From assembly GCA_938003915.1 (NCBI GenBank), contig CALKWV010000076.1, forward strand, positions 8,600 to 72,599: a stretch of DNA of 64,000 nucleotides. The letters are read 5' to 3'. A program made the translations under genes and the position numbers. Positions 4,372 to 61,223 of this stretch are shown piece after piece (positions within the stretch are counted from its first letter, which is position 1; each line of letters opens with the position of its first letter). This DNA comes from an uncultured Bacillota bacterium. Its GTDB lineage: Bacteria; Bacillota; Clostridia; Caldicoprobacterales; UBA3941. The notes under the pieces are model-generated. The model worked only from the letters and a program-made list of their open reading frames with translations, searched no databases and had not been told where the DNA came from.

Positions 4372-4893
4372 ATGGACAATATAATACTAGTAGGCTTCAT
4401 GGGAGTGGGTAAATCCACCATTGGAAGTGAGCTAGCCAAAAAAATATCCTATAAATTTTTAGATTCGGATAATAAAATTGAGGAAAGAGCTGGCATGAGT
4501 ATACCGGATATTTTCCGTATCTATGGCGAAAAATATTTTAGAAGATTAGAATTTGAAATAATAAAGGATATAGTGAATATGTCAGGTATTGTATTGGCCA
4601 CCGGCGGAGGAGCAGTGATGAATAAACAGCTCTTTGAGATGTTGATGTCAAAGGGGACAGTTATTCATTTAGATGCTTCCCTATCAACTTTATATGATAG
4701 GCTTAAGGATTCAAATAACCGTCCTATGCTAAATCATAGTAATTGCAAAAAAAGAATAGATGAGCTCTACAGTCTTAGAAGGCCTGTATATATGAAAGCT
4801 CATCATACTATAAACACTGATGGTAAAAAGATAGAGGACATAGTGGATGAAATTGCAGAAATTATTATTGGAAGGGAAGAAGACAAGCGTTGA
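4372..4893 (+). CDS. aroK: shikimate kinase
   Basis: 173 aa with Walker A GFMGVGKSTIG and a typical AroK layout (DSD..IE, GGG lid). Confidence 0.9.
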   Translation: MDNIILVGFMGVGKSTIGSELAKKISYKFLDSDNKIEERAGMSIPDIFRIYGEKYFRRLEFEIIKDIVNMSGIVLATGGGAVMNKQLFEMLMSKGTVIHLDASLSTLYDRLKDSNNRPMLNHSNCKKRIDELYSLRRPVYMKAHHTINTDGKKIEDIVDEIAEIIIGREEDKR

Positions 4894-5777
4894 ATTTCAA
4901 TAACGGTATTCGATTTGGCCCCTCAGGTAATAGCGAATCCTTCTATAAACAAGGGCATAAGAGTAGCGTTGAAATGCCCAAATGGTTACATTATATGGGG
5001 TTAAACGCCTATGAGTATTCATTAACTCGAGGTATTAATATAAAAGAGGAAACGGCAAGATTAATTGGAAAAGAAGCTAAAAAATATGATATAGCAGTAA
5101 GCGTTCATGCACCATATTATATAAATCTTGCTTCACCTGAGAAGGAGAAAACAGAAAAGTCTATAAAGTATATTTTAGACTCCCTTGAAGTAGCTACATG
5201 GCTTGGAGCAAAAAAGGTGGTTTTTCATCCGGGTTCCTGTGCAAAAATTAGCAGAAAGGAAGCTAATGAAAATGTGATAAAAATGTTGGAACAGCTAATA
5301 GCCCAAGCCAGGGATTATCTTAAAAATGGTATGTTTTTATGTCCAGAAACGATGGGAAAATTAAATCAGATTGGTACATTAGATGAGATTTTATTCTTTT
5401 GTTCTCTACACGATAACATCATACCTACTTTAGATTTTGGACATATACATGCAAGGGGATTAGGGGCTATTAATAGCAAAGAAGATTATGAAGAAATCAT
5501 AAATAGGGTAGAAAATGCTATTGGCAATGAGAGAACCAAATATTTTCATTCTCATTTTAGCCGTATTGAATTCACCGAAGGTGGTGAAAAAAAACACTGG
5601 ACTATTTCTGATACACAATATGGACCAGAATTTTCCTATTTAGCTGAAGTAATAATTGAAAGAAATCTTACTCCAACAATTATTTGTGAGTCCAGAGGAG
5701 TTATGGCTGAAGATGCCCTTAAGTTGAAGAATATATATCAAGAAAAAATTATACTATCCAATAATGGCAATATATGA
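4890..5777 (+). CDS. xylose-isomerase-like TIM-barrel protein, endonuclease IV (Nfo)-related
   Basis: The motifs HAPYYINL, FHPGS, CPETMG, DFGHIHA and HFSRIE parallel the Nfo metal ligands. The TTG start overlaps the aroK stop (GTTGA). Confidence 0.65.
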   Translation: MNFNNGIRFGPSGNSESFYKQGHKSSVEMPKWLHYMGLNAYEYSLTRGINIKEETARLIGKEAKKYDIAVSVHAPYYINLASPEKEKTEKSIKYILDSLEVATWLGAKKVVFHPGSCAKISRKEANENVIKMLEQLIAQARDYLKNGMFLCPETMGKLNQIGTLDEILFFCSLHDNIIPTLDFGHIHARGLGAINSKEDYEEIINRVENAIGNERTKYFHSHFSRIEFTEGGEKKHWTISDTQYGPEFSYLAEVIIERNLTPTIICESRGVMAEDALKLKNIYQEKIILSNNGNI

Positions 5778-8477: not shown

Positions 8478-8999
8478 GTGTTTCTAAAAATAGCATCTAG
8501 CGTAGCAATTGTCGTATGCTGCACCCTTTTAGGAATGCATATGTCCTTTAGATATAAACAGAGAATATACAATATTAGAGTTTTACAAAGCATATTAGCT
8601 AATTTAGAAACAGAGATAGTTTATTACTCTACCTTTCTAACGCAGGCTATTAGAAATTCAATTAGAACATTGAATGGAGATTGGAAAATTTTTTTCATGG
8701 AAGTAGCAGATATTTTAGAAAATAAGCAGGAATATTCCCTTGATGACGCATGGAATAAATCTTTGAATAAAATACAAAAAAATCCGTATATAGGCAAAGC
8801 AGAGTTAGATATTATGTATCGATTTGGCTTACAGTTAGGCAGTAGCGATAGACAAAATCAACAGAAGTATTTTGAAATTGTACAAGAGCAACTAAAAATA
8901 GAAGAAGAAAATGCTAGGCAGCTTCACTTACGATATGGAAAAATGTACCGCAGCCTAGGCTTACTATTGGGTCTGGGTATAGCCATAATATTGTTCTAG
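8478..8999 (+). CDS. spoIIIAB: stage III sporulation protein AB
   Basis: Position and size fit, with an N-terminal TM (IASSVAIVVCCTLLG). GTG 8478 is preferred over the ORF-track TTG 8463. Confidence 0.8.
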   Translation: MFLKIASSVAIVVCCTLLGMHMSFRYKQRIYNIRVLQSILANLETEIVYYSTFLTQAIRNSIRTLNGDWKIFFMEVADILENKQEYSLDDAWNKSLNKIQKNPYIGKAELDIMYRFGLQLGSSDRQNQQKYFEIVQEQLKIEEENARQLHLRYGKMYRSLGLLLGLGIAIILF

Positions 9000-9021
9000 T
9001 TTACGAATGGAGGAAACTAAG

Positions 9022-9219
9022 GTGAACATTGATATTATTTTTAAGATAGCTGCAATTGGTATTTTGGTAGCAGTGGTAAATCATGTGCTTATAAGGGCAG
9101 GTAGGGATGAAATAGCTATGCTAACTACCCTTACAGGTGTAGTGATTGTTCTTCTAATGGTAGTAAACCTGATTAATGATTTATTTAATAGCGTGAGAAG
9201 TATCTTTCGTCTATATTAA
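9022..9219 (+). CDS. spoIIIAC: stage III sporulation protein AC
   Basis: A small two-TM protein starting VNIDIIFKIAAIGILVAVVNHVL, like SpoIIIAC. GTG 9022 has GGAGG 8 nt upstream; the ORF track starts at 9007. Confidence 0.8.
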   Translation: MNIDIIFKIAAIGILVAVVNHVLIRAGRDEIAMLTTLTGVVIVLLMVVNLINDLFNSVRSIFRLY

Positions 9220-9240
9220 AACCACTTAGAAGGTGTTCTT

Positions 9241-9627
9241 ATGGACATAGTTCAAATTGTTGGGATAGGCATTGTAGCTGCCATTCTTTCAATGATTATA
9301 AAACAGCATAAGCCTGAGATAGCTTTCCTTATAAGCATTGCAGCAGCTATATTTATATTTTTCATTATTGCTGATAAGCTCCCATATATTGTTAATGTGT
9401 TTAACGATATAATCAATAAAACTCAAATTGATACTGTTTTTATATCTACCTTAATAAAAATAATAGGTGTGGCATACATTACTGAATTCGGTTCTCAGAT
9501 TTGCCGGGATATGGGAGAAAATAGTATAGCTTCAAAAATAGAGCTGGGTGGTAAAGTGATAATTATGATTTTAGGGTTGCCAATATTAACAGCTCTAACT
9601 GAAATAGTTTTAGAAATATTGCCATAA
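9241..9627 (+). CDS. spoIIIAD: stage III sporulation protein AD
   Basis: MDIVQIVGIGIVAAIL matches the SpoIIIAD N-terminus. 128-aa polytopic membrane protein. Confidence 0.85.
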   Translation: MDIVQIVGIGIVAAILSMIIKQHKPEIAFLISIAAAIFIFFIIADKLPYIVNVFNDIINKTQIDTVFISTLIKIIGVAYITEFGSQICRDMGENSIASKIELGGKVIIMILGLPILTALTEIVLEILP

Positions 9628-9640
9628 GGAGTTTCAACAT

Positions 9641-10840
9641 ATGAAGAATTTAGCCGTTATTGGTGTTATAGTAGTGTTAGTTCTAATTCCAACGAATGTG
9701 CTAAAAGCATCTACAACAGAGGAATTTCAGATTGATATAAGAGAAGAAATTCAAAAAATCGCAGAAGAACAATTGAATATATTAAACATAAATCAATGGA
9801 ATGAATTTATTAAAAATGTAGATAATTATCAAGATAACTTATTAGCAAATATTAATATTAAGGAAATGATTATTAATCTGGTTACAGGCAACTATAAGTT
9901 TGACTGGAGAGAAATATATGAAAACTTTGGCAAGGCTTTTTTTGCAGAGATAAAGCTGAATTTAACACTTATGGCTAAAATTTTTGCTATAGCTATATTT
10001 ACCGGTATATTGAGTAATTTTAAAACAAATTTTACTGACAGCACAGTAGGAGAGCTGGCCTGGATAGTATGTTACATTATGATAGTAGTATTGATAATAC
10101 AGAGTATAACAGTAGTCCTCAATGTTGGAAAAAATACTATTGAACAAATGACATCATTTATGCAAATTCTTTTTCCTCCACTTTTAGCCCTTCTCATTGG
10201 TATGGGAGGCATAGCTTCATCGGGTGTTATGCAGCCAGCTACGGCATTGCTGACTGGAATCACTGGAGTATTCCTAAACAATGTTATGATACCATTGATT
10301 TTCTTATCCACAATTTTAGTTTTAGTCAGCAATATTAGTGAAAATATAAGTATAGAAAATCTAAGCAAGTTGACTAGAAATATTTGCTCCTGGGTATTAG
10401 GCATAGTATTTACAATCTTTATAGGAGTTCTTAGTGTCCAGGGGATAATGGCAGCATCCTTTGATGGGGTGTCTATTCGCACAACAAAATACGCCATTGA
10501 AACCTTCGTTCCAGTGGTAGGTAAAATGTTCTCTCAAACAGTAGATGTTGTTATTAACTCCTCCTTAATGTTAAAAAATGCAGTAGGTATAGTGGGATTA
10601 ATGGTTGCTATATCCATATGCCTATATCCTATATTAAAGATTCTTTCATTAATAGCTGTTTATAAGTTATCCAGTGCTTTGTTAGAACCCATTAGCGATG
10701 AAAGAATAGTTAATTGTTTAAATGAAATAGGCGGTGTGTTAGTAATACTCCTTGTAACCTTATTAGGCATAGCTATATTGTTTTTTTTAACTATAGCATT
10801 ATTAATGGGGTTAGGTAATATAACTGTAATGATGAGATAG
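9641..10840 (+). CDS. spoIIIAE: stage III sporulation protein AE
   Basis: 399 aa with a signal peptide plus a polytopic membrane domain. Fifth position in the operon. Confidence 0.85.
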   Translation: MKNLAVIGVIVVLVLIPTNVLKASTTEEFQIDIREEIQKIAEEQLNILNINQWNEFIKNVDNYQDNLLANINIKEMIINLVTGNYKFDWREIYENFGKAFFAEIKLNLTLMAKIFAIAIFTGILSNFKTNFTDSTVGELAWIVCYIMIVVLIIQSITVVLNVGKNTIEQMTSFMQILFPPLLALLIGMGGIASSGVMQPATALLTGITGVFLNNVMIPLIFLSTILVLVSNISENISIENLSKLTRNICSWVLGIVFTIFIGVLSVQGIMAASFDGVSIRTTKYAIETFVPVVGKMFSQTVDVVINSSLMLKNAVGIVGLMVAISICLYPILKILSLIAVYKLSSALLEPISDERIVNCLNEIGGVLVILLVTLLGIAILFFLTIALLMGLGNITVMMR

Positions 10841-50542: not shown

Positions 50543-51364
50543 ATGAATTTGCTTGTAGATTACCATATACATACCAATCACTCTATTGATGGGGAAATGA
50601 CTATAGATGAAGCCTGTATTAAGGCTATTAACCTTGGGATAAAGGAAATTGCCTTTACAGACCATATTGATTTAGATTGGCCAGATCCAGAATTTGATTT
50701 TGACACCATTGATTTAGAAAAATATTTTACAGATATAGAAAAAAACAAAACAAAGTATAAGGGACAGCTTAAAATAAAGGCTGGTATAGAAATTGGTTTA
50801 CAACCTCATGTGTTAAATGAAACAGCCAAAATAATAGAAGACTATCCCTTTGATTTTGTAATAGGCTCAGTACACATAATTCAAAGAATGGATCCCTACC
50901 GAGGAAAATATTATATTGGTAAGACTAAGGAAGAGATTTATAGACTCTATTATGAGGAAACCCTTAGATTAATAGAAGATTTTTCCCATTTTGACGTACT
51001 AGGTCATATTGGCTACATAAAAAGATATTCTCCCCTGCCTTATAATAAGGAAGATGAACTATTGCACTTAGATCTCATTGATGAAATTTTTAAAGTATTA
51101 ATAAAAAAAGGTAAAGGAATTGAAGTAAATACATCTGGCTATCGACATGTTTCAAATTGCCCCATGCCTCCTTTAGAATTAATTATGAGATATAGGGAGC
51201 TAGGGGGAAATATAATAACTTTAGGTTCAGATTCCCATAAGCTAGATGATTTCGGTTTTGGTCTAAAATCTGGGCTAGAAACTATAATGCGGGCAGGTTT
51301 TGATCAAATTACTACTTTTACTAATAGAAAACCTTATTTTCATCGCATTAGAAAAAAGGAATAG
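50543..51364 (+). CDS. hisK: histidinol-phosphatase, HisJ/HisK PHP family
   Basis: VDYHIHTNHSIDG, FTDH, GSVH, LGHIGY and GSDSH are PHP metal ligands in the HisJ arrangement. It is divergent from the his operon. Confidence 0.82.
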   Translation: MNLLVDYHIHTNHSIDGEMTIDEACIKAINLGIKEIAFTDHIDLDWPDPEFDFDTIDLEKYFTDIEKNKTKYKGQLKIKAGIEIGLQPHVLNETAKIIEDYPFDFVIGSVHIIQRMDPYRGKYYIGKTKEEIYRLYYEETLRLIEDFSHFDVLGHIGYIKRYSPLPYNKEDELLHLDLIDEIFKVLIKKGKGIEVNTSGYRHVSNCPMPPLELIMRYRELGGNIITLGSDSHKLDDFGFGLKSGLETIMRAGFDQITTFTNRKPYFHRIRKKE

Positions 51365-51393
51365 GCTTAATTTATAATTGCCTATTCCTTTAT
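51357..51393 (+). terminator. hairpin terminator overlapping the hisK stop
   Basis: AGGAATAGGC-13 nt-GCCTATTCCT followed by TTAT. The U-tract is weak. Confidence 0.55.
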
Positions 51394-51488
51394 ATAAATA
51401 TATTTATGAACATCAAGATTATGTTCATATGCAAAACCCCTATAACAAAGCGTTGAAAAAATTCCTTTATGTATCTTTCCTATGCTAC

Positions 51489-52850
51489 TTATGATGGTGT
51501 AACATGAACCTGGTAGCTTTGATTAAGTTTTTTGCTATACGTTATATTATCTATGGAAATATATATTTTTTCAGATTCTCGCCAAACTTCTAAAGGTAGT
51601 ATGCAATATATCTTCACATTACCATTATCATCATAAGGCATAGAGGGATACAAATAGCTTCCTGTTTCAATGATCTCACCAAAGTGATTTTGAACTGTTA
51701 TAACATTAGGTACGTTTATACTTCCTCTATTTACAGTTGATAATAAGCTTTTCTCATTACTACTAAAAAGATATTCCATCGTTAATATTGTATCATTATC
51801 CCTATTATCAGCATTGTCCCATATCAGCTCTATTTCAACATGATTATCTTTGAAATGCAAAGTTTCTAAAATAATATCTGTATTTATTACTCGGGCTAAT
51901 GGCATTTTTATAGTGTGAATACCTTTCTTTTTATTAGTAATACCAGTATCAATGGTACACTGAATAGAATCTTTTCCTATCAAGCTTAAAGATTCTATTT
52001 TTATATCAAATGAATCTGGCAATTCGTTAAAGGGTTGAATTTCTATGTGGTACTTAGACTCATCTTGATCTATCAAAACAGGGCTTTTATCAATTATGAA
52101 TTTTTCGTCTTTATCCGTAACGATTTGAGCCTGTATTTTGTATATGGTTTCAGGATTTGATCCTTTATATGTAAAATATATCTTACTATAAGAAACTCCG
52201 GCTTCCAATGCATATAGTTCTATATTATATTCTTCTACTTCAATAGTGCTATCAAGCTTAAACTTTTTTATAGGCTCCTCAGTATAAATAGCCTTTGGAT
52301 CTATATTAATAGCATCAAAATCATATTTTGTGTCCTCAATAAATAGTATGGGTTTAAAAAATAATTGAATATCATTTTCTTCCTCATTTATTGGATGAAC
52401 AGATGTTATTCTTAAAAAGCTATAAAAGTTGTTATTATAAAAGAACCCTTTTTCTGTTGAGGTGCCAACTGAATCCCTAGGGTGAATTTCTCTAGCCCGG
52501 GTATTATCATCAATAATAAAATATCCCCCTAAGTAAGCAACCTGATCAATATTTTCAACATGATAGAAGATAAAAGCATCTCTACTGTTATACCATATCC
52601 TATCTATCTTCAATCTATAATGGGTGTCTGGAATATTAAAAGTTTTATGTATTGGCTTTACCATATCCAATTGTTCTGCCCTAATAAGACCAGGAATGGA
52701 ATCATAATAATATTGTCTTATAGCATTAGAATTGGGATCAATATCAACACTGGTATCTTTTTTTCTATTCTTATATACAAAAGAAAATAGAACAATGAGC
52801 ACAACAACTATCAAAATCATGATTTGATAAACAAGATATTTTTTTCTCAA
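51489..52850 (-). CDS. single-pass membrane protein with large beta-rich extracytoplasmic domain, unknown function
   Basis: TTG 52850 has GGAGG 8 nt upstream. The N-terminus (M)RKKYLVYQIMILIVVVLIVLFSFVY is a signal anchor; the rest is hydrophilic and beta-strand-like. The ORF track starts at 52931. Confidence 0.5.
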   Translation of the reverse strand: MRKKYLVYQIMILIVVVLIVLFSFVYKNRKKDTSVDIDPNSNAIRQYYYDSIPGLIRAEQLDMVKPIHKTFNIPDTHYRLKIDRIWYNSRDAFIFYHVENIDQVAYLGGYFIIDDNTRAREIHPRDSVGTSTEKGFFYNNNFYSFLRITSVHPINEEENDIQLFFKPILFIEDTKYDFDAINIDPKAIYTEEPIKKFKLDSTIEVEEYNIELYALEAGVSYSKIYFTYKGSNPETIYKIQAQIVTDKDEKFIIDKSPVLIDQDESKYHIEIQPFNELPDSFDIKIESLSLIGKDSIQCTIDTGITNKKKGIHTIKMPLARVINTDIILETLHFKDNHVEIELIWDNADNRDNDTILTMEYLFSSNEKSLLSTVNRGSINVPNVITVQNHFGEIIETGSYLYPSMPYDDNGNVKIYCILPLEVWRESEKIYISIDNITYSKKLNQSYQVHVTPS

Positions 52851-52928
52851 GGGTTCTGCCTCCTTTATAATAAAGGACTTAGATATATCTATGATAGCAC
52901 ACTTCATAGTCAAATTCAGCCAAAATTC

Positions 52929-52974
52929 CAAAAAAATCTCCTTTAAATGATAAAATTAAATCATTTAAAGGAGA
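52929..52974 (-). terminator. strong rho-independent terminator ending the cphB-cphA-DUF2156-GNAT operon
   Basis: On the minus strand: TCTCCTTTAAATGAT-8 nt-ATCATTTAAAGGAGA (15-bp perfect stem) followed by TTTTTTT. Confidence 0.92.
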
Positions 52975-52992
52975 TTTTAATATTACTTAGAA

Positions 52993-54162
52993 TCAATAAT
53001 CCTCGTATATGTATGGAATAGTATCATAAAAAATATTTTCTAACGCTTTAATCTTATCTTTATTATTTATTTGGATCTTTTTGTACCTTATAGCTTGTTC
53101 TACCGTATAATATCCCCATAAAAGCTGAGACAGAACCGATATCTGAATTACAAAATCAGGTGATTTATTAGTAGGGGAGACTAATAACCTATTTTCATTG
53201 CCCTTTAGATTTATGCTTATATTGTTCCATTCAAGTAAAGGATCAATAACTTGTATCACTAGTTCATCATCATCTCTAATAGGAAGATTTTTAAGAGCTT
53301 TTTCTACATCAACTATTCTTCCCATTACAAAGGGCTTTTCCTGTTTTATGACACCCAATTCTATTATTTGAGGCAGGGGTGAAAGACCCAATTTATGTTG
53401 CAGAAATACTTTTTTATTTTCTAATGAAAAGTTTAGAGCAATTTTTAACATTTCTTTATATGTATCTATGTCTTTACAACATATTTCCCTTATACTAAGT
53501 CCATCTTGGTCATTCACTAAAAACATATATCCCATAGTTTGATTATCTTTTTTGAATATATATCCATCCCCACCATCTATTCGAGCATCTGATAAAATCC
53601 TATTCCAATCCTGCTTGTTTCTAATAACATATCCATTTAAATCCTTGGTATAATAAGAGTAGCACTTATTTAAATCCTCCAAATCTTCAGGTAAACTTAT
53701 AGGTCTTATGTCGCCATGGATATGAGTACCCTCTAGATAGTTAAAAAAATTATTTATATGGCCTGTATATAAATTATAGGAATAACAGGTCTCCCAGCCA
53801 TATTTTCTATAGAAGTTATAGTTAAAGGGCAACAATATGCTAACCCACTGTTTTCTTTCCCTCATTTCTTCAAGGCTTTTATATAATAACTTGGACACAT
53901 AGCCTTTACCCCGATCCTCTGGCCAGGTGGAGACACCTACAATATATGAAGTCTCCATATTTTTACCACGTATTGAGATATTATAGGGAAGAAGCTGTAA
54001 GGCAGAGCATATTCGACCATAATTACATACTACTAAAGTATTCTCATGTTGATATCTAGTATCAAAAAACCAATGAACAAAATTTGGAGAATCATCAAAA
54101 CAATATTCCCATAGTTTTATAACAGCTTTTTTTTCATTGGGCTTAGCTGTTCTTATATTCAT
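52993..54162 (-). CDS. Eis-like GNAT N-acetyltransferase (GNAT + SCP2-like C-terminal domain)
   Basis: About 390 aa. MNIRTAKPNEKKAVIKLWEYCF, then VGVSTWPEDRGKGYVSKLL (acetyl-CoA P-loop-like) and FYRKYGWE; the length and layout match Eis-family enzymes. Start is ATG 54162 or GTG 54171, which overlaps the upstream stop. Confidence 0.7.
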   Translation of the reverse strand: MNIRTAKPNEKKAVIKLWEYCFDDSPNFVHWFFDTRYQHENTLVVCNYGRICSALQLLPYNISIRGKNMETSYIVGVSTWPEDRGKGYVSKLLYKSLEEMRERKQWVSILLPFNYNFYRKYGWETCYSYNLYTGHINNFFNYLEGTHIHGDIRPISLPEDLEDLNKCYSYYTKDLNGYVIRNKQDWNRILSDARIDGGDGYIFKKDNQTMGYMFLVNDQDGLSIREICCKDIDTYKEMLKIALNFSLENKKVFLQHKLGLSPLPQIIELGVIKQEKPFVMGRIVDVEKALKNLPIRDDDELVIQVIDPLLEWNNISINLKGNENRLLVSPTNKSPDFVIQISVLSQLLWGYYTVEQAIRYKKIQINNKDKIKALENIFYDTIPYIYEDY

Positions 54163-54167
54163 GATTC

Positions 54168-55070
54168 TCACCTATTCAAATATCCCGTGTATTTGACTAT
54201 CATTTTATGAGGATAATAGGATTCTTTAGCCTTTCTAAGCCCAGGTAAGCCCATATCTTCTTCTCGATTTATATATGTATATTCACTCCAGCAATGCTCA
54301 GCAAATTGCTGATTAATCATGGCATAGCTACCATGGTAATCAGTATTGGCCTTTTCAATATGAATTACAGCCATGTCAGGATTTAACTCTTCACCTAAAG
54401 AAAAAGCCTGAATTTTACCATGAATTCTTAAAGCACCGCCTTTAATACCCAGGGTTTCCATATTTCTTAAGGCTTCAACTATAGCTACCCTTTCTTCCAT
54501 AATTCCTGGATCATCAGGGCGCGCAGCTGCCCATTCCATGGCTGCAATTAAGCATTCTTCCACATTATCATCAGTTATAGTCTCATAATTCCATTCATAT
54601 CGCTTTTTGAATTTATTGATATGATTGCGTTTTTTCTGATACTTTCTTCCCTTTAAATTAATTAGATCTTCAGATAAATATACATAGTCGTACATGTCTC
54701 TATCATCTTCATATCTGAATACTCCAGGCAAGGCCTTATCCATAATTTCTTTAATAGGCTCTGTAATAGCCTTGATTATTACTGGAAAGCCATTTTTCTG
54801 AAAATATTCCACCATCATCATTAGGGCCCTATCAAATCCTTCCTCTTGACTTCCAAGAGGTGGGAAGATTATTGGGAATTTATTTCTATATTGTCCAATC
54901 AAACATAAGTGATCTTCATATACTGTAAAAGTTAATTTATAATGATATCTCCATATAAAAAAATTAGTAAAATTAAATTCTGAGTTTTCATGGGGCTTTT
55001 TTCTAATGTATTCGTCAAAAATTGGTTTATCTTCTATTTCAATGTTTTTAAAATCTTTTTCTTGAAACAA
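54168..55070 (-). CDS. DUF2156 protein (MprF C-terminal / aminoacyl-tRNA-dependent transferase-like fold)
   Basis: 300 aa, soluble. SEFNFTNFFIWRYHYKL, KGRKYQKKRNHINKF and a tandem GNAT-like layout are typical of PF09924-type proteins as I recognise them. AAAGGAGG RBS. Confidence 0.65.
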   Translation of the reverse strand: MFQEKDFKNIEIEDKPIFDEYIRKKPHENSEFNFTNFFIWRYHYKLTFTVYEDHLCLIGQYRNKFPIIFPPLGSQEEGFDRALMMMVEYFQKNGFPVIIKAITEPIKEIMDKALPGVFRYEDDRDMYDYVYLSEDLINLKGRKYQKKRNHINKFKKRYEWNYETITDDNVEECLIAAMEWAAARPDDPGIMEERVAIVEALRNMETLGIKGGALRIHGKIQAFSLGEELNPDMAVIHIEKANTDYHGSYAMINQQFAEHCWSEYTYINREEDMGLPGLRKAKESYYPHKMIVKYTGYLNR

Positions 55071-55139
55071 TGTTACCCAATACCTCCTTTACCTCATAAA
55101 TATATAACACTAAAACATAAGCTTGAAACACATCTGCTT

Positions 55140-57791
55140 CTATTTTTTACTATATTGAACCTGGTCCAATTGTTTTGCCCCTCTACTGTCAAGATCCACC
55201 ATGGCTTTTTTTATTATATCTAGAACAGGTTCTAACTTCTCATAATAAATTACTATAAGATCCCCAGGTAATGCTTCACTTATGGCTTTATTAAGTGCCT
55301 GTGTTTCAGAAAGGATTACTTCAATATGATCTTTTCCCATTCCTTGAGATAGGACTCCTTCTTCTAAAAGTTTAGCTACCTCTCCCTTCTTTCTGTTTCT
55401 TAAATCAGAATCTTCCTTAATAATTATCTTATCAAAAATTGTTGCAGCAATGCTACCAATGGCTTTTATTGTAGAATTATCTCTATCTCCAGGTACACCA
55501 ATAATGCCTATTAATCTAGATGCCCCCATTTTTTTGATTGCCTCGCCCATAAGTTTATAACCGGCTATATTATGCCCATAGTCTACTATTACTCTAAAGT
55601 CCTTAATATTAAATACGTTAAAGCGGCCTGGGTTTTGTAGCTCGTCTGAATAAAAAGAGGTCATAGCCTTCTCAATTATGGGAAGTGGCACCATCATAGA
55701 ATATGCTGCTGCTATTGCTGCAAGACAATTTTCTATATTATGTACTAACCTACCACCATAAGTTGCTGGTATCTTGGATATATGTAAACTCTGGATGTTT
55801 CCATTACCTGTTGCTATGGTCACATATTTGTTTCTTAAAAAAACAGCTTTACCTCCTGCCAAAATATGTTTATGAATAATTAAGTTATCTTCCTGTTTTG
55901 AAAAATATATAATGTTGCAATTTACCCTATTAGCTGCTTGCACAACCATGGGATCATCAGCATTCAAAACAGCATATCCATTTGATTTAACGGATTCAAT
56001 CACCAGAGATTTTATAAAAAGTAAATCATCTAGAGTTTCCACACCATCTATTCCTAAATGATCTTCGCTTAAATTGGTTAAGACTCCTACATCACTTAAA
56101 TCGTAAGCCAGCCCAGATCTTATTATACCACCTCTTGCTGTTTCCAGCACTGCTATATCAATAGTTTTATCCATAAGCACAGTTCTAGCGCTTATGGGGC
56201 CTGTAGTATCGCCTTTTACAAGACATTTATCGTTTATGTATATACCGCCGGTTACAGCCATTCCTACGTTCATTCCATATACCTTAAAAATATGAGATAT
56301 CATGCGTGCGGTTGTAGTCTTGCCATTAGTTCCGGTTATGGATATTATTGGCACCGAATGTTTTGCAGTTGGCGGAAATAGCATATCCACTATTAAGTCA
56401 GCTACTTTTCGTGGCTTTCCTTTTGAAGGGAAAAGATGCATACGAAGGCCTGGAGCTGCATTTACTTCTATAACTGCCCCACCATTGGTTGAAATAGGTT
56501 TTGATATATCTGGACATGTAATATCTACTCCTGCTACATCAAGTCCAATAATTTGACTTGCTCTAACTGCAATATCTCCATTTTCTGGATGGATTTTATC
56601 AGTACAATCTATTGCCTCTCCTCCTGTACTGATATTTCCATTTTGTTTCAAATAAACTTTTTTACCTTTTGGTGGAATGTCATCCAATTTGTATCCCTGT
56701 TTTAATAAAACCCTTAGACTAATATCATCTATTTTTATTTTTGTAAGAGGTTTCTCATGCCCCAGCCCTCTTCTAGGATCTTTATTAGCTATTTCCACTA
56801 GTTCCGCAATACTATGCACCCCATCACCGATAACATGGGCAGGAATCCGCCTTGCAACAGCCGCTACTCTGCCGTTTATTACAAGAACTCTGTAATCATT
56901 TCCTTTAATACACTTTTCCACTAATACCTTGCTATCAAATTTAGAAGCGATCATGAAAGCATCAGCTACTTCACTTGGACTATTAACATCTAGAGATACA
57001 CCTTTTCCTTGATTTCCTCTTTCAGGCTTAACTACTACCGGATATCCAATTTTTTCCGCTATATCTAAAGCTTGCTGTAGTGTTTTACAAACGCCTCCTT
57101 CCGGTACTGGTATCCCTACCTCATCAAGGATCATTTTTGTTGTTGTCTTATCACAGGCGATATCCACTGCAATACAGCTGGTATTTTCCACTATTGTGGC
57201 CTGTATTCTCTTTTGGTATTTACCATAGCCTAATTGAATGATGCTATCATTTCCAATTCTTGTAACAGGTATTTGTCTTCTCTCAGCTGCTTCTACAATT
57301 GCTTTTGTACTTGGACCCAACTGATTTTCATATACCTTCTCTTCTACAATATCTAGAGCACTATTAAGGTCAAAAGGCTGCTGATTGCACAAAGATTTTA
57401 CTAGTTGGACAGCTACTTTTGCTACTTCTAAACCTCTGGTTTCATCTATATATTCAAAGACTATAGTATAAAGAGAAGTGTCTTTGATTCTTCTAGCCTT
57501 CCCAAAACTTACATCTTCCCCCAATATATTCAATAGTTCTAGGGCTATATGTTCAATCACATGGGCCATGTAAGTTCCTTCATACAATCTTTCTACAAAC
57601 CCTCCTGGATAGCCAAGAGAGCATTTGTGTTCATATAAACCAGGTAGGATTTCAAGGAGTTTAGCATTAAAATTTTCAATATCTTTAGATGAAATATCTA
57701 TCCATTCACCTAAGTCTACAACCATTTTTATAGTCTTTCTATGACTATATATATTCCTTCCTTTAAAAGCCTTAAGCTCTATGATCTTCAA
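55140..57791 (-). CDS. cphA: cyanophycin synthetase
   Basis: 883 aa from TTG 57791 (AGGAGG 7 nt upstream). Has an N-domain ((M)KIIELKAFKGRNIYS), an ATP-grasp domain (VVVKPERGNQGKGV) and a Mur-ligase-like domain (ITGTNGKTTT). The ORF-track start at 57857 would overlap cphB. Confidence 0.93.
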   Translation of the reverse strand: MKIIELKAFKGRNIYSHRKTIKMVVDLGEWIDISSKDIENFNAKLLEILPGLYEHKCSLGYPGGFVERLYEGTYMAHVIEHIALELLNILGEDVSFGKARRIKDTSLYTIVFEYIDETRGLEVAKVAVQLVKSLCNQQPFDLNSALDIVEEKVYENQLGPSTKAIVEAAERRQIPVTRIGNDSIIQLGYGKYQKRIQATIVENTSCIAVDIACDKTTTKMILDEVGIPVPEGGVCKTLQQALDIAEKIGYPVVVKPERGNQGKGVSLDVNSPSEVADAFMIASKFDSKVLVEKCIKGNDYRVLVINGRVAAVARRIPAHVIGDGVHSIAELVEIANKDPRRGLGHEKPLTKIKIDDISLRVLLKQGYKLDDIPPKGKKVYLKQNGNISTGGEAIDCTDKIHPENGDIAVRASQIIGLDVAGVDITCPDISKPISTNGGAVIEVNAAPGLRMHLFPSKGKPRKVADLIVDMLFPPTAKHSVPIISITGTNGKTTTARMISHIFKVYGMNVGMAVTGGIYINDKCLVKGDTTGPISARTVLMDKTIDIAVLETARGGIIRSGLAYDLSDVGVLTNLSEDHLGIDGVETLDDLLFIKSLVIESVKSNGYAVLNADDPMVVQAANRVNCNIIYFSKQEDNLIIHKHILAGGKAVFLRNKYVTIATGNGNIQSLHISKIPATYGGRLVHNIENCLAAIAAAYSMMVPLPIIEKAMTSFYSDELQNPGRFNVFNIKDFRVIVDYGHNIAGYKLMGEAIKKMGASRLIGIIGVPGDRDNSTIKAIGSIAATIFDKIIIKEDSDLRNRKKGEVAKLLEEGVLSQGMGKDHIEVILSETQALNKAISEALPGDLIVIYYEKLEPVLDIIKKAMVDLDSRGAKQLDQVQYSKK

Positions 57792-57795
57792 GTCA

Positions 57796-58605
57796 CTACC
57801 TCCTAAGTATAGGTTTTCGAGTTTTAATATTATATTTATATCCTGCTGGCAATACATGCATTTTTATATTTGTAAAAGCCAATATTTCATCGGGTTCTAG
57901 TTCCGATACATTGCTATAATCCGAATGACTTCCGTCTATAATTGTAACTGCATTAGATCCTATGACCTCAAAAATAGCAGCATCATTTATAATTAATGCC
58001 GTATCCTCATCAATTCCAATTCCCAAAACATGGGGATTTTGGGCTATAGCAGTCAATAGCCTCCCTATCCTACCTCTTTGAGCAAAATGTTGATCTATTA
58101 CAACATCTTTAAGTAATCCCAAGCCAGGTGCCATTTTCAGTGTGCATTTTCTAGGTGCATCTTCATTGTTACCTGAAATTATCATAGTTTCACTCATAAC
58201 TGATGCTCCGGCACTGGTTCCAGCAATTATAGCACCGCTATCATAAGCTGTGTATAGAGCATTTTCAGCTCTAGTACCTCCCATTACAGATGTAATACGC
58301 AATTGATCGCCACCTGTTATAAATATACAAGAGGCCTGACTTATTAACTGACTTTTTTCTATCTCATTGGCATCCTGCCTAGTTCGAATATGGACTGCAG
58401 AAATATGGGAGGCCCCCAATCTTTCAAAAACTTCAATATATTCCCTAGCAGTTTTCTCGGGATACTCTGTTGCTGCTGTTAATATTACCACATCCCCTTC
58501 TCTAGATTTGGATAAATCTATAAGGGTCTTTAATATTGTGCAGTCCTCTTTTTTGTCTTCAGCTCCGCCAATTATCATCAAAGTTCCTTTTATAACTTCC
58601 TCCAT
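57796..58605 (-). CDS. cphB: cyanophycinase (peptidase S51)
   Basis: GTLMIIGGAEDK, GGDQLR and the catalytic-serine region AGTSAGASVMS. ATG 58605 has AGGAGA 6 nt upstream; the ORF track starts at GTG 58623. Confidence 0.9.
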   Translation of the reverse strand: MEEVIKGTLMIIGGAEDKKEDCTILKTLIDLSKSREGDVVILTAATEYPEKTAREYIEVFERLGASHISAVHIRTRQDANEIEKSQLISQASCIFITGGDQLRITSVMGGTRAENALYTAYDSGAIIAGTSAGASVMSETMIISGNNEDAPRKCTLKMAPGLGLLKDVVIDQHFAQRGRIGRLLTAIAQNPHVLGIGIDEDTALIINDAAIFEVIGSNAVTIIDGSHSDYSNVSELEPDEILAFTNIKMHVLPAGYKYNIKTRKPILRR

Positions 58606-58674
58606 ATCCTTTCTCCTATTCACAGCAATGATATTATTTTCTCTTATTCTAATAATTTTATTCCAAATTTTACA

Positions 58675-58718
58675 TTAAAAAATGAGGGTCCCATACTACT
58701 AATATGAGAACCCCCATT
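58675..58718 (-). terminator. terminator after the membrane-protein gene, upstream of cphB
   Basis: On the minus strand: AATGGGGGT-20 nt-ACCCTCATT (one G-U pair) followed by TTTTAA. Confidence 0.65.
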
Positions 58719-58726
58719 TTCCTGAT

Positions 58727-59287
58727 TTATCTATCTACTTTTGACTTTTCAGCTCTTTGAGCATCTGATTCTTTAATTACATCCAATATTTTTTTACGTC
58801 TTCTCTGTCCATCTAAATAGCTCAAGCCTGTTAAAATAGGTAAAATAGCAATTGGTATAATAGCAATATATGGCATTTTATCCTGGAAAGTTATGAAAAG
58901 TTTAGTATACGGAGCCAAGCATATCCTAAGAACTATTTCTGCATAGTTAACTTTAGCCTCTATTATTATTGCTAATATGTATAGAATCAATACAGGTATA
59001 GATGCTATTAGTCCAATTATAAAACCTTTCGGCTTCCAAAATATATTTCGTTTTAGATCACTCTGACTAATATAGCTAATATCAGAGTAAATTATAAACC
59101 ACAAGAAAAAAATTAGTAATAGCCCGATCAACCATTGATAGATTTCATTATTTTCCCACAAGCTCATCAATGGTATCATGAGAAAAAATTCTACTATAGA
59201 AATTATGATATGAGTGCCAATAAGCTTTAAGCTTAATTTACCAACTCCCATAAGATTCATCCTTCCAAAAAAGATATAATTTCTCAC
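58727..59287 (-). CDS. polytopic membrane protein, unknown function
   Basis: Has 4-5 hydrophobic helices and a basic C-terminal tail. It lies downstream of degU. The start is uncertain: GTG 59287, or ATG 59251 preceded by GGAAGG. Confidence 0.5.
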   Translation of the reverse strand: MRNYIFFGRMNLMGVGKLSLKLIGTHIIISIVEFFLMIPLMSLWENNEIYQWLIGLLLIFFLWFIIYSDISYISQSDLKRNIFWKPKGFIIGLIASIPVLILYILAIIIEAKVNYAEIVLRICLAPYTKLFITFQDKMPYIAIIPIAILPILTGLSYLDGQRRRKKILDVIKESDAQRAEKSKVDR

Positions 59288-59374
59288 CCTATATCTTCCT
59301 AGTACTGTTATATCCTAATAATTAGCATAAGCCTTTATTATAATATTGTATAACATAAGTCAATAGTTTACTAG

Positions 59375-60040
59375 CTAAATACCATATTGTTTTTTATTTT
59401 TCTTGAAAACATACACAGCAGCTTGAGTCCTGTCAGAAACATCTATCTTTTTGAATATATTTGAAACGTGATTTTTTACCGTCTTATCACTAATAAATAA
59501 TTCATCTGCAATCTCACGATTATTTTTCCCTTCTGCTATCAACAATAGTACCTCTATTTCTCTCTGTGTTAAATTGTCTTGCTCTAATTCCTTAATTATA
59601 TCTCTAGTGCTAATATCATCATTGTCTTTTTCAAGATTATTCATATTATCAATTATATTAGGATGGATGTATTTCTCTCCGTTATGAACAACACGAATAG
59701 CTTCAATAAGCTGATCAGATTCAGCATCCTTCATAATATAACCTGAGGCTCCTGCTTTCATGGATTTTCTGAGATATTCCCTGTCTTCATGAATTGTTAA
59801 GACTATTATTCGAGCAGTAGAACCTCTTTCCTTCAATTCCTTAATAGCTTCCATTCCGTTTTTTATAGGCATATTAATGTCCATAAGTATGACATCAGGC
59901 TTAGTTAATAAGGCTTTTTCTACTGCCTCCTCCCCATTCTTTGCTTGGGCAACAACTCGAATATCATCTTCTAATTCTAATATCTGTTGTAAACCTTTCC
60001 TCATAAGTGAGTGATCGTCTGCAATCATGACGTTAATCAT
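59375..60040 (-). CDS. degU: NarL/LuxR-family response regulator, DegU-like
   Basis: Receiver domain (IADDH...DVILMDINMP...LTIHED) plus a LuxR HTH (LTQREIEVLLLIAEGKNNREIADELFISDKTVKNHVSNIF). Confidence 0.85.
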   Translation of the reverse strand: MINVMIADDHSLMRKGLQQILELEDDIRVVAQAKNGEEAVEKALLTKPDVILMDINMPIKNGMEAIKELKERGSTARIIVLTIHEDREYLRKSMKAGASGYIMKDAESDQLIEAIRVVHNGEKYIHPNIIDNMNNLEKDNDDISTRDIIKELEQDNLTQREIEVLLLIAEGKNNREIADELFISDKTVKNHVSNIFKKIDVSDRTQAAVYVFKKNKKQYGI

Positions 60041-60050
60041 TTGTAATTTT

Positions 60051-61223
60051 TCACTCCTTTTCTTGTGGATTTAATGGAATTTCGATTCTCACTGTCGTGC
60101 CTTTCCCCACACGGGAATTAATACTAAATTTCCCTTTCATAAGTTCAGCTCGTTGTTTCATGCTATAAATCCCAAAACCACCATAATCAATATTTCTTGA
60201 TGGGGCAAAACACTCGTCTGTTATATCAAATCCTTTACCATTATCTATTACCGAAGCTATTAACATATCTTCTATTATCTTTAAACTAATAAATACCTGA
60301 GTAGCGTTTGCATGCTTTACAACATTGTTCAAAGCTTCCTGAATTATCCTAAAAACTGCTACTTCTATTAGGGGATTAATACTTACATACTCTGGATAAG
60401 TTTCCAAAATCACATCAATATTAGTTTCATTCATAAATCGATTGGTATATTGCTTTAAGGTGGCGATTAGTCCAAGATCATCTAGTGACATAGGACGAAG
60501 ATCGAAAATTATCCTACGTATCTCTTGAAGAGAGCTTCGCACTAATTTTTTAAGATCTCGAATTTCTTCGCGAGCCCTGTCTACATCCATATCCACTAAT
60601 TTCTCGCACAATTCTGTTTTTAAAGCTAAGTTAGAAAGGGATTGGGCAGGACCATCATGTATGTCTCTTGCCACTCTTTGACGCTCTTCCTCTTGGGCCA
60701 TGATGATTCTTATACCCATCTCTTCTTTCTTTTGAATCTCTAAAATAGTGTCATCTAAATTTGTAAGAGCGATTTTTAGATAATTCATGGCTGAAGCAAC
60801 ATGACTTGTTATATATTCTGCTCTTTCCAAGGTTGAGCGCATCCTTCTTAATTGATGTTCTAAATCAGTACGTTGAGCTATAAGCTGTTCCTCTTGTTTT
60901 CTATAAATAAGGACCTGAATCTGTAAATCTTTAGTTTCGTCATAAGCTTTTCTTATATCCTCTTCATCATATTTTTTTAAGTTCTTGCTAATTACCATAA
61001 GTTTATATCTGCTCTTTCTTTCTAGCTTTTCTAACCGCTCCACCTCTTCAATAGTTTTGACTATTTTTACTTGTAATGCCTCAAGACAGGACTCAAGTCT
61101 CTTGCACTCCTGCCTACACTCCTCAGCTATTTCAAATATTTCTTTTTTCCCTTTTTCTATTGCTGCTATGGTTTTTTGAACTATTTGATCCATCTGTGCT
61201 AAATGTACAGAATCTTTGGCCAC
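60051..61223 (-). CDS. degS: cytoplasmic sensor histidine kinase, DegS-like
   Basis: No TM. A DegS-type coiled-coil N-domain is followed by HisKA_3 (RIIMAQEEERQRVARDIHDGPAQSL) and HATPase_c. The layout is closely parallel to B. subtilis DegS. Confidence 0.85.
   Translation of the reverse strand: MAKDSVHLAQMDQIVQKTIAAIEKGKKEIFEIAEECRQECKRLESCLEALQVKIVKTIEEVERLEKLERKSRYKLMVISKNLKKYDEEDIRKAYDETKDLQIQVLIYRKQEEQLIAQRTDLEHQLRRMRSTLERAEYITSHVASAMNYLKIALTNLDDTILEIQKKEEMGIRIIMAQEEERQRVARDIHDGPAQSLSNLALKTELCEKLVDMDVDRAREEIRDLKKLVRSSLQEIRRIIFDLRPMSLDDLGLIATLKQYTNRFMNETNIDVILETYPEYVSINPLIEVAVFRIIQEALNNVVKHANATQVFISLKIIEDMLIASVIDNGKGFDITDECFAPSRNIDYGGFGIYSMKQRAELMKGKFSINSRVGKGTTVRIEIPLNPQEKE

Follow-up and report, generated by a model that had tools for sequence, protein, structure and literature searches.

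We analyzed a stretch of 64,000 nucleotides (here called the window) from an uncultured Bacillota bacterium of the class Clostridia (Caldicoprobacterales, UBA3941; assembly GCA_938003915.1, contig CALKWV010000076.1), in which the genes for cyanophycinase (cphB) and cyanophycin synthetase (cphA) are followed by a gene for a DUF2156 protein and a gene for an Eis-like GNAT acetyltransferase. Cyanophycin is a nitrogen-storage polymer of biotechnological interest. The first-pass annotation of the window had regarded the four genes as a single extended cyanophycin operon. All four open reading frames (ORFs) were found on the minus strand where they had been placed, head to tail and tightly spaced, with hairpin terminators on both outer sides. 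The features are, in the direction of transcription:

Approximately 58677–58722, minus strand: intrinsic terminator 3' of the membrane-protein gene and 5' of cphB, identified by folding and followed by U6.
57796–58623, minus strand: cphB, cyanophycinase (peptidase S51), 275 aa; TIGR02069 equivalog and PF03575.
55140–57791, minus strand: cphA, cyanophycin synthetase, 883 aa from TTG 57791; TIGR02068 equivalog.
55071–55139, minus strand: cphA–DUF2156 spacer, 69 nt, with a promoter-like motif and a ribosome-binding site (RBS) and without a terminator.
54168–55070, minus strand: stand-alone DUF2156 (PF09924) double-GNAT protein, 300 aa, without a membrane domain.
52993–54162, minus strand: Eis-like acetyltransferase (GNAT-GNAT-SCP2), 389 aa; PF13527, PF17668, PF13530.
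52926–52978, minus strand: intrinsic terminator 3' of the GNAT gene, with a 19-bp stem and a T-run (hairpin 52933–52978), identified by terminator scan and folding.

The cphB product scored 335 bits against TIGR02069 (cutoff 127), matched PF03575 at 5.6e-26, and contained the S51 serine motif GTSAG, which places it among the cyanophycinases, with activity as a prediction. When translated from TTG 57791, the cphA product scored 1261 bits against TIGR02068 (cutoff 850), with model positions 1–860 of 862 aligned to residues 2–862, and showed the full architecture of a CphA1 enzyme, i.e. the Cyanophycin_syn N-domain, ATP-grasp, Mur_ligase_M, and Mur_ligase_C (PF18921, PF08443/PF02786, PF08245, and PF02875 were all matched). 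Its residues 155–476 were also matched by TIGR03103, the model of N-acetylglutaminylglutamine synthetase. The junction described in the first-pass annotation could be read directly from the sequence: only 4 nt lie between the cphB TAG (57798–57796) and the cphA TTG, and cphB itself contains an AGGAGG at 57804–57799, 7 nt 5' of that TTG. The start of the longest ORF, ATG 57857, would overlap cphB by 62 nt and add 22 residues outside the TIGR02068 model. Because of the AGGAGG and because the model leaves this extension uncovered, TTG 57791 is the credible start. Together, cphB and cphA constitute a canonical cyanophycinase/cyanophycin-synthetase operon with translational coupling.

The cphA stop (55142–55140) is separated by the 69-nt spacer from the DUF2156 start, TTG 55070, which is preceded by the RBS AAAGGAGG at 55090–55083. 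As proposed earlier, this gap has a strong RBS and no credible hairpin; it showed no significant structure (z = +0.6) and no terminator. The DUF2156 stop TGA (54170–54168) had been said to overlap or abut the GNAT start. The close spacing holds and the overlap does not: the GNAT gene most likely starts at ATG 54162, after a gap of 5 nt, since a called gene with exactly this 389-aa product has been recorded and the overlapping GTG 54171 is merely the longest-ORF start. Both outer terminators were found, with corrected positions. The hairpin 3' of the GNAT gene, given earlier as a 15-bp stem at 52929–52974, has a 19-bp stem at 52933–52978 (-25.5 kcal/mol, z = -6.9), and the one 5' of cphB, given as 58675–58718, lies at approximately 58677–58722 (-23.5 kcal/mol, z = -6.0); in both cases, 0 of 200 shuffled sequences folded equally well. 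Between these two hairpins, the terminator scan returned weak intragenic sites only. An Rfam scan of 51300–59500 for T-box, riboswitch, and leader elements gave no match at E ≤ 1.

The assignment of the DUF2156 protein to PF09924 was confirmed along its whole length (3.7e-57, 194 bits with a cutoff of 27.5; residues 26–295 of 300 aligned to profile positions 5–296 of 298). Its TTG start lines up with the GTG and ATG starts of orthologues, and its 120 best homologues were all approximately 300 aa long with PF09924 as the only domain. The AlphaFold2 model (pLDDT 92.9) showed a fold of two GNAT subdomains, with a TM-score of 0.90 to 2HQY (Bacteroides BT_3689), 0.62–0.68 to the synthase domains of MprF, about 0.58 to FemX (about 0.6 for FemX and the aminoacyl-tRNA-dependent peptide synthases Sba18 and Sbb17 together), and 0.40–0.52 to tandem GNATs that use acetyl-CoA. 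By sequence, 2HQY was matched at 3e-58 (8e-96 with the family profile; 36% identity), and among the PDB sequences the family profile reached only 2HQY and no MprF chain, even at E ≤ 10. The protein shares PF09924, the tandem-GNAT fold, and a basic inter-domain helix with the MprF C-domain (4V36, 5VRV, 6LV0, and 7DUW), but it is only 11–17% identical to it and has no N-terminal integral-membrane (flippase or anchor) domain within its 300 aa. It is thus not a protein of the MprF type, and its donor may be acetyl-CoA.

BT_3689 and the H. pylori protein HPB8_1270 are stand-alone DUF2156 proteins of the same length, subfamily, and fold as the window protein. According to one paper, acetyl-CoA is present in the active site of 2HQY, and deletion of HPB8_1270 led to less acetylation of four RNase J lysines (PMC10700544). 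These two observations on the closest characterized relatives undercut the premise of the first-pass annotation, by which an aminoacyl-tRNA donor would follow from the fold. Such a donor would be compatible with the fold and the basic helix, whereas the nearest homologue is the one reported with acetyl-CoA. Across members with and without adjacent cphAB, 38 columns of the family alignment were invariant, including the basic helix KGRKYxKKRNHINKF and the motif YINREEDMGxxGLRKAKxSYxP, all of which are shared with BT_3689. Since the linked and unlinked members have these columns and motifs in common, adjacency to cphAB is not expected to alter the chemistry.

The GNAT protein matched PF13527 (Acetyltransf_9) at 1e-38 and the SCP2_2 domain PF13530 at 2e-15, with a weak match to PF17668 (0.004), and its PDB relatives were 3N7Z of B. 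anthracis (4e-35, residues 2–387), 2I00 and 2HV2 of E. faecalis, and 2OZG of Anabaena. It resembles these proteins and Eis of M. tuberculosis in the GNAT-GNAT-SCP2 architecture, the motif A R-G-K-G, and the aromatic C-terminus: the protein ends in EDY-COOH, and a fixed E(D/Y/W)(Y/F) end was kept in 38 orthologues. The earlier assignment to an Eis-like family was therefore borne out. The match to the Eis equivalog NF002368 reached only 41.9 bits, far below the cutoff of 576, and for this reason we call the protein Eis-like and not an Eis orthologue. The window GNAT gene is paired with a DUF2156 gene, an arrangement that, to our knowledge, has not been described for Eis loci.

The distribution of the pair was surveyed by a profile scan with one genome per species. 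The matches listed contained 80 stand-alone DUF2156 loci, with 37–57% identity to the window protein; they are a sample and not a census, and all counts from this survey refer to them. Neighbours were called by tblastn, by clustering of neighbouring ORFs, and by a Pfam census of the ORFs that directly follow DUF2156, and all three agreed. An Acetyltransf_9 GNAT gene was found near DUF2156 in 24–25 of the 80 loci, across three phyla. It accounted for 23 of the 45 immediately downstream ORFs and was the sole recurrent neighbour, other families occurring at most three times each, and the median DUF2156–GNAT gap was 27 nt. Both cphA and cphB were present at only 2 of the 80 loci, those of Caldicoprobacter oshimai and a Bacillota metagenome-assembled genome (MAG), which are the two closest relatives of the window, whereas approximately 23 loci had the cassette without cphAB nearby. 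The hosts were Clostridia, Negativicutes (Megasphaera, Phascolarctobacterium, Acidaminococcus, and Sporomusaceae), Bacteroidota (Bacteroides and Dysgonamonadaceae), and one Acholeplasmataceae MAG. The other neighbours were lineage-specific housekeeping genes, for example DUF1934-argS or purL among the Negativicutes and, among other Clostridia, gap, an M20 peptidase, or a SpoU methylase. Thus, as far as gene order and spacing can tell, DUF2156 and GNAT form an autonomous, translationally coupled, and widely distributed two-gene cassette. In the neighbourhood survey that had been suggested for detecting an enrichment of the pair beside cphAB, the pair was thus found mostly beside unrelated genes.

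At four Bacteroides loci (L060, L061, L068, and L071), lrgA-lrgB is followed, on the same strand and at short distances, by the cassette, with pta upstream and tldD/pmbA downstream. As in the window, the BT_3689-type gene is followed by an Acetyltransf_9 GNAT gene; the Bacteroides copies differ in lying 3' of lrgA-lrgB rather than cphBA, and their function is known only indirectly. This context of overflow and acetyl-CoA metabolism fits an acetyl-CoA-dependent function of the cassette. At five other loci (L005, L008, L011, L028, and L030; Negativicutes and one mis-binned MAG), a DUF2156 gene without a GNAT partner lies just 5' of DUF1934-argS, often with purL upstream. The proximity to argS, which encodes arginyl-tRNA synthetase, is an arginine-related setting that parallels the cphA setting. 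It is probably a matter of synteny, because it is limited to one lineage.

The order cphB-cphA-DUF2156-GNAT was present in every locus of the near clade with sufficient flank, in approximately 14 lineages (DUF2156 49–100% and CphA 60–97% identical to the window proteins). In a neighbour-joining tree, all cphAB-linked DUF2156 proteins formed one monophyletic clade of Caldicoprobacterales-like Clostridia, which points to a single evolutionary event behind the linkage. The sister of this clade was Fervidicella, which has the GNAT gene and no cphAB within the fetched flanks. The reverse survey, starting from CphA, comprised a metagenome scan (13 close relatives) and four single loci. A CphA relative with 60% identity still had the DUF2156-GNAT pair. 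At three of three loci outside the clade, namely those of Thermoanaerobacter kivui (CphA 57% identical), a Clostridia MAG (56%), and a Clostridiaceae MAG (54%), cphB-cphA was followed by unrelated genes. As in the window, the T. kivui genes (L107) run from cphB to cphA and abut or overlap, and T. kivui CphA has the full N-domain, ATP-grasp, and Mur-ligase architecture. The window clade differs from these three loci in its two extra downstream genes and in a small upstream membrane-protein gene, neither of which the three possess. Repeated independent co-localization of the pair with cphA or cphB, which would indicate a functional link, was thus not seen: the linkage was confined to one clade and to 2 of the 80 listed loci, and the pair was missing from all three of the cphBA loci that represent relatives outside the clade. 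Within the clade, the synteny extended over alr, the 5-formyltetrahydrofolate (5-FTHF) cyclo-ligase gene, degS, degU, the membrane-protein gene (TM186), cphB, cphA, DUF2156, GNAT, a gene for a 480-aa protein (U480), a PHP phosphatase gene, and hisZ. As it reaches plainly unrelated genes, part of the conservation of the four-gene order is phylogenetic inertia.

A side observation concerns the cphBA loci of spore-forming Clostridia (L088–L093, L109, and L110), which had recurrent sporulation and germination genes in their flanks (the gerA operon, DUF1540, CLC_0170, ylbF, sipL, Germane, and alanine racemase). This agrees with published descriptions of cyanophycin as spore-associated material (PMC5532821).

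The cphA–DUF2156 spacer carries a promoter-like motif consisting of GTTTCA (55129–55124), 17 nt, and a TG-extended TATATA (55106–55101). In an alignment of seven orthologous spacers (CphA 66–97% identical to that of the window), TGTTTCA and GTGTTATATA were invariant, and their spacing in the window lineage is that of a -35-like element, 17 nt, and a TG-extended -10 element 5' of the conserved RBS. The motif fits a TG-extended sigma-A -10; recognition by a sporulation sigma factor was considered and rejected, since CATA-type -10 elements are missing from the motif. Orthologous spacers were 40–210 nt long. Textbook terminators directly 3' of cphA were present in L002, L084, L088/L102, and L092, the spacer of L086/L100 contained a perfect 12/12 sigma-70 promoter (TTGACA-N16-TATAAT), and TG-extended -10 elements occurred in the spacers of further relatives. 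Judged from these signals, the cassette has its own sigma-A-type promoter in the relatives and is often parted from cphA by a terminator. It is best seen as a transcription unit of its own, which in the window perhaps also receives read-through from cphA. The proposed single four-gene unit therefore stands in part: the compactness and the missing cphA–DUF2156 terminator hold for the window, and co-transcription is weakened by the terminators and promoters of the relatives and by the conserved spacer motif. The first-pass annotation had itself named two grounds for giving up the extended operon, a pair that adjoins unrelated genes without enrichment near cphAB and signals for independent transcription, and these are largely what was found.

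Taken together, the results make it somewhat probable that the locus consists of a canonical cphBA operon beside an autonomous, widespread acyltransferase cassette that serves a generic purpose rather than one specific to cyanophycin; nothing found here shows the pair acting on cyanophycin. The cassette came to adjoin cphBA once, in the ancestor of the Caldicoprobacterales-like clade, and has since been inherited vertically within a larger syntenic block. In the window, it may be transcribed from the conserved internal promoter, which we infer from conservation and from the relatives since the consensus scan called none, and also by some read-through from cphBA, because no terminator follows cphA. 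Most likely, both proteins transfer acyl groups onto amine acceptors, such as protein lysines or small basic amines. Acetyl-CoA would be the likeliest donor, given the nearest characterized DUF2156 relatives and the chemistry of Eis.

Several points weigh against this reading. The inner block TM186-cphB-cphA-DUF2156-GNAT was unbroken in approximately 14 lineages, with at least four different neighbours at each outer side, a stability greater than would be expected from pure drift. A consensus promoter scan of the window called no promoter in the cphA–DUF2156 spacer, and since this spacer is also short and without a terminator, co-transcription with cphA is likely here. The DUF2156 fold is nearer to aminoacyl-tRNA transferases (MprF and FemX) than to the acetyl-CoA tandem GNATs, and the protein has retained the very basic helix LKGRKYQKKRNHINKFKKRY; a comparable helix in MprF has been proposed to bind tRNA. 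The acetyl-CoA evidence is second-hand, consisting of the statement of a single paper and a knockout phenotype in a distant species.

The principal alternative is that the generic cassette was recruited in Caldicoprobacterales as a clade-specific accessory module of cyanophycin metabolism. The polymer or the dipeptide could be capped, acylated, or aminoacylated, or CphA and CphB could be switched. More specifically, the targets could be the polymer or its primer, for example through acylation of the N-terminus or of Lys side chains, the released beta-Asp-Arg/Lys dipeptide, through N-acetylation of the free Asp alpha-amine, or CphA and CphB themselves, whose lysines would be acetylated for regulation, so that nitrogen storage would be linked to acetyl-CoA status. 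The last possibility has an analogy in acuA, which regulates AcsA, the product of the adjacent gene. The support for recruitment comes mainly from the unbroken inner block, in which cphB-cphA-DUF2156-GNAT stayed intact while the outer flanks were rearranged, and from the window itself, where strong terminators lie only outside the four genes. Eis enzymes are linked to lysine acetylation, as is HPB8_1270, and TIGR03103 offers a natural precedent for joining a GNAT to a CphA-like ATP-grasp domain. However, the juxtaposition arose only once, the pair was absent from all three neighbouring cphBA loci, the cassette mostly occurs without cphAB, terminators or promoters part the two units in several members of the clade, Bacteroides and Negativicutes members without adjacent cphAB have identical catalytic motifs, and the surrounding unrelated genes are equally syntenic. 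We therefore consider recruitment unlikely. If it were true, the pair would represent the first layer of enzymatic modification or regulation described for cyanophycin, with TM186 as a further component, and would reveal a modification or control step for the biopolymer. It is improbable that the pair forms an aminoacyl-tRNA-dependent pathway unrelated to cyanophycin, in which the DUF2156 protein would, like MprF, FemX, VlmA, or Sbb17, take an amino acid from aminoacyl-tRNA and pass it to an acceptor, either soluble or a lipid, and the GNAT protein would then N-acetylate the new alpha-amine: the best structural neighbours after 2HQY (the MprF synthase domains, FemX, and Sba18/Sbb17), the conserved basic helix, and the adjacency to argS would agree with it, but the family profile reaches no MprF chain, the nearest homologues point to acetyl-CoA and acetylation, the argS-linked copies come from one lineage and have no GNAT partner, and, as there is no membrane domain, the protein has no obvious access to lipids.

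Thus, the evidence argues for a lineage-specific juxtaposition of a canonical operon and a generic cassette, and what it supports at present is a gene neighbourhood and not a novel type of system. In the library searched, literature on cyanophycin together with DUF2156, GNAT, or lysyltransferase gave nothing relevant, and the bioinformatics work of the Schmeing laboratory on cyanophycin clusters mentions no acetyltransferases, GNATs, or DUFs. The earlier statement that the pair has no described role in cyanophycin metabolism was therefore upheld, and the arrangement of cphBA with DUF2156-GNAT appears to be unreported. The more durable result is the conserved two-gene cassette itself, in which an Eis-like GNAT protein is coupled to a stand-alone DUF2156 protein. 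This cassette is common among anaerobes, for example in Bacteroides, Megasphaera, and Phascolarctobacterium of the human gut, and offers a defined target for biochemistry, namely whether the donor is acetyl-CoA or aminoacyl-tRNA.

Two further genes flank the outer terminators:

58727–59287, minus strand: TM186, small multi-pass membrane protein of approximately 175–187 aa with an uncertain start codon, conserved in position and without a family match.
51489–52931, minus strand: U480, 480-aa protein with an N-terminal hydrophobic segment, directly past the GNAT terminator.

TM186 had no Pfam, NCBIfam, or PADLOC match, Pfam giving only noise at E ≤ 1. A homologue was encoded immediately 5' of cphB in L001, L082–L087, L090–L101, L105, and L108 and was absent in L088/L102. 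This position was kept although the genes further upstream vary (degU, 5-FTHF cyclo-ligase, DUF192/type II secretion system, and amidohydrolase). A strong terminator parts the gene from cphB, and TM186 could be a cyanophycin-associated component. The DUF4446 protein encoded 5' of cphB in T. kivui was considered as a counterpart and showed no similarity to it. A two-component system of the DegS/DegU type (59375–61223, minus strand) lies directly 5' of the membrane-protein-cphB-cphA block. It occupies the same position in L001, L082, L083, L094, L099, L101, L105, and L108 and is a candidate regulator of the cphBA locus.

Homologues of U480 (27–99% identity) were found in the same position in L082, L088–L091, L094–L097, L102, and L106 and in a displaced position in L083; Pfam matches to U480 were at noise level only. 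When the PADLOC defence models were run against the GNAT protein, the DUF2156 protein, TM186, and U480, nothing meaningful was obtained, the sole match being the 2TM effector to U480 at E 0.0024. In L083, a metagenome contig with a coverage of 2.5x, cphB and the GNAT gene were each split into two ORFs (at 4424–5241 and 8938–10115), which are probably assembly frameshifts rather than pseudogenes.

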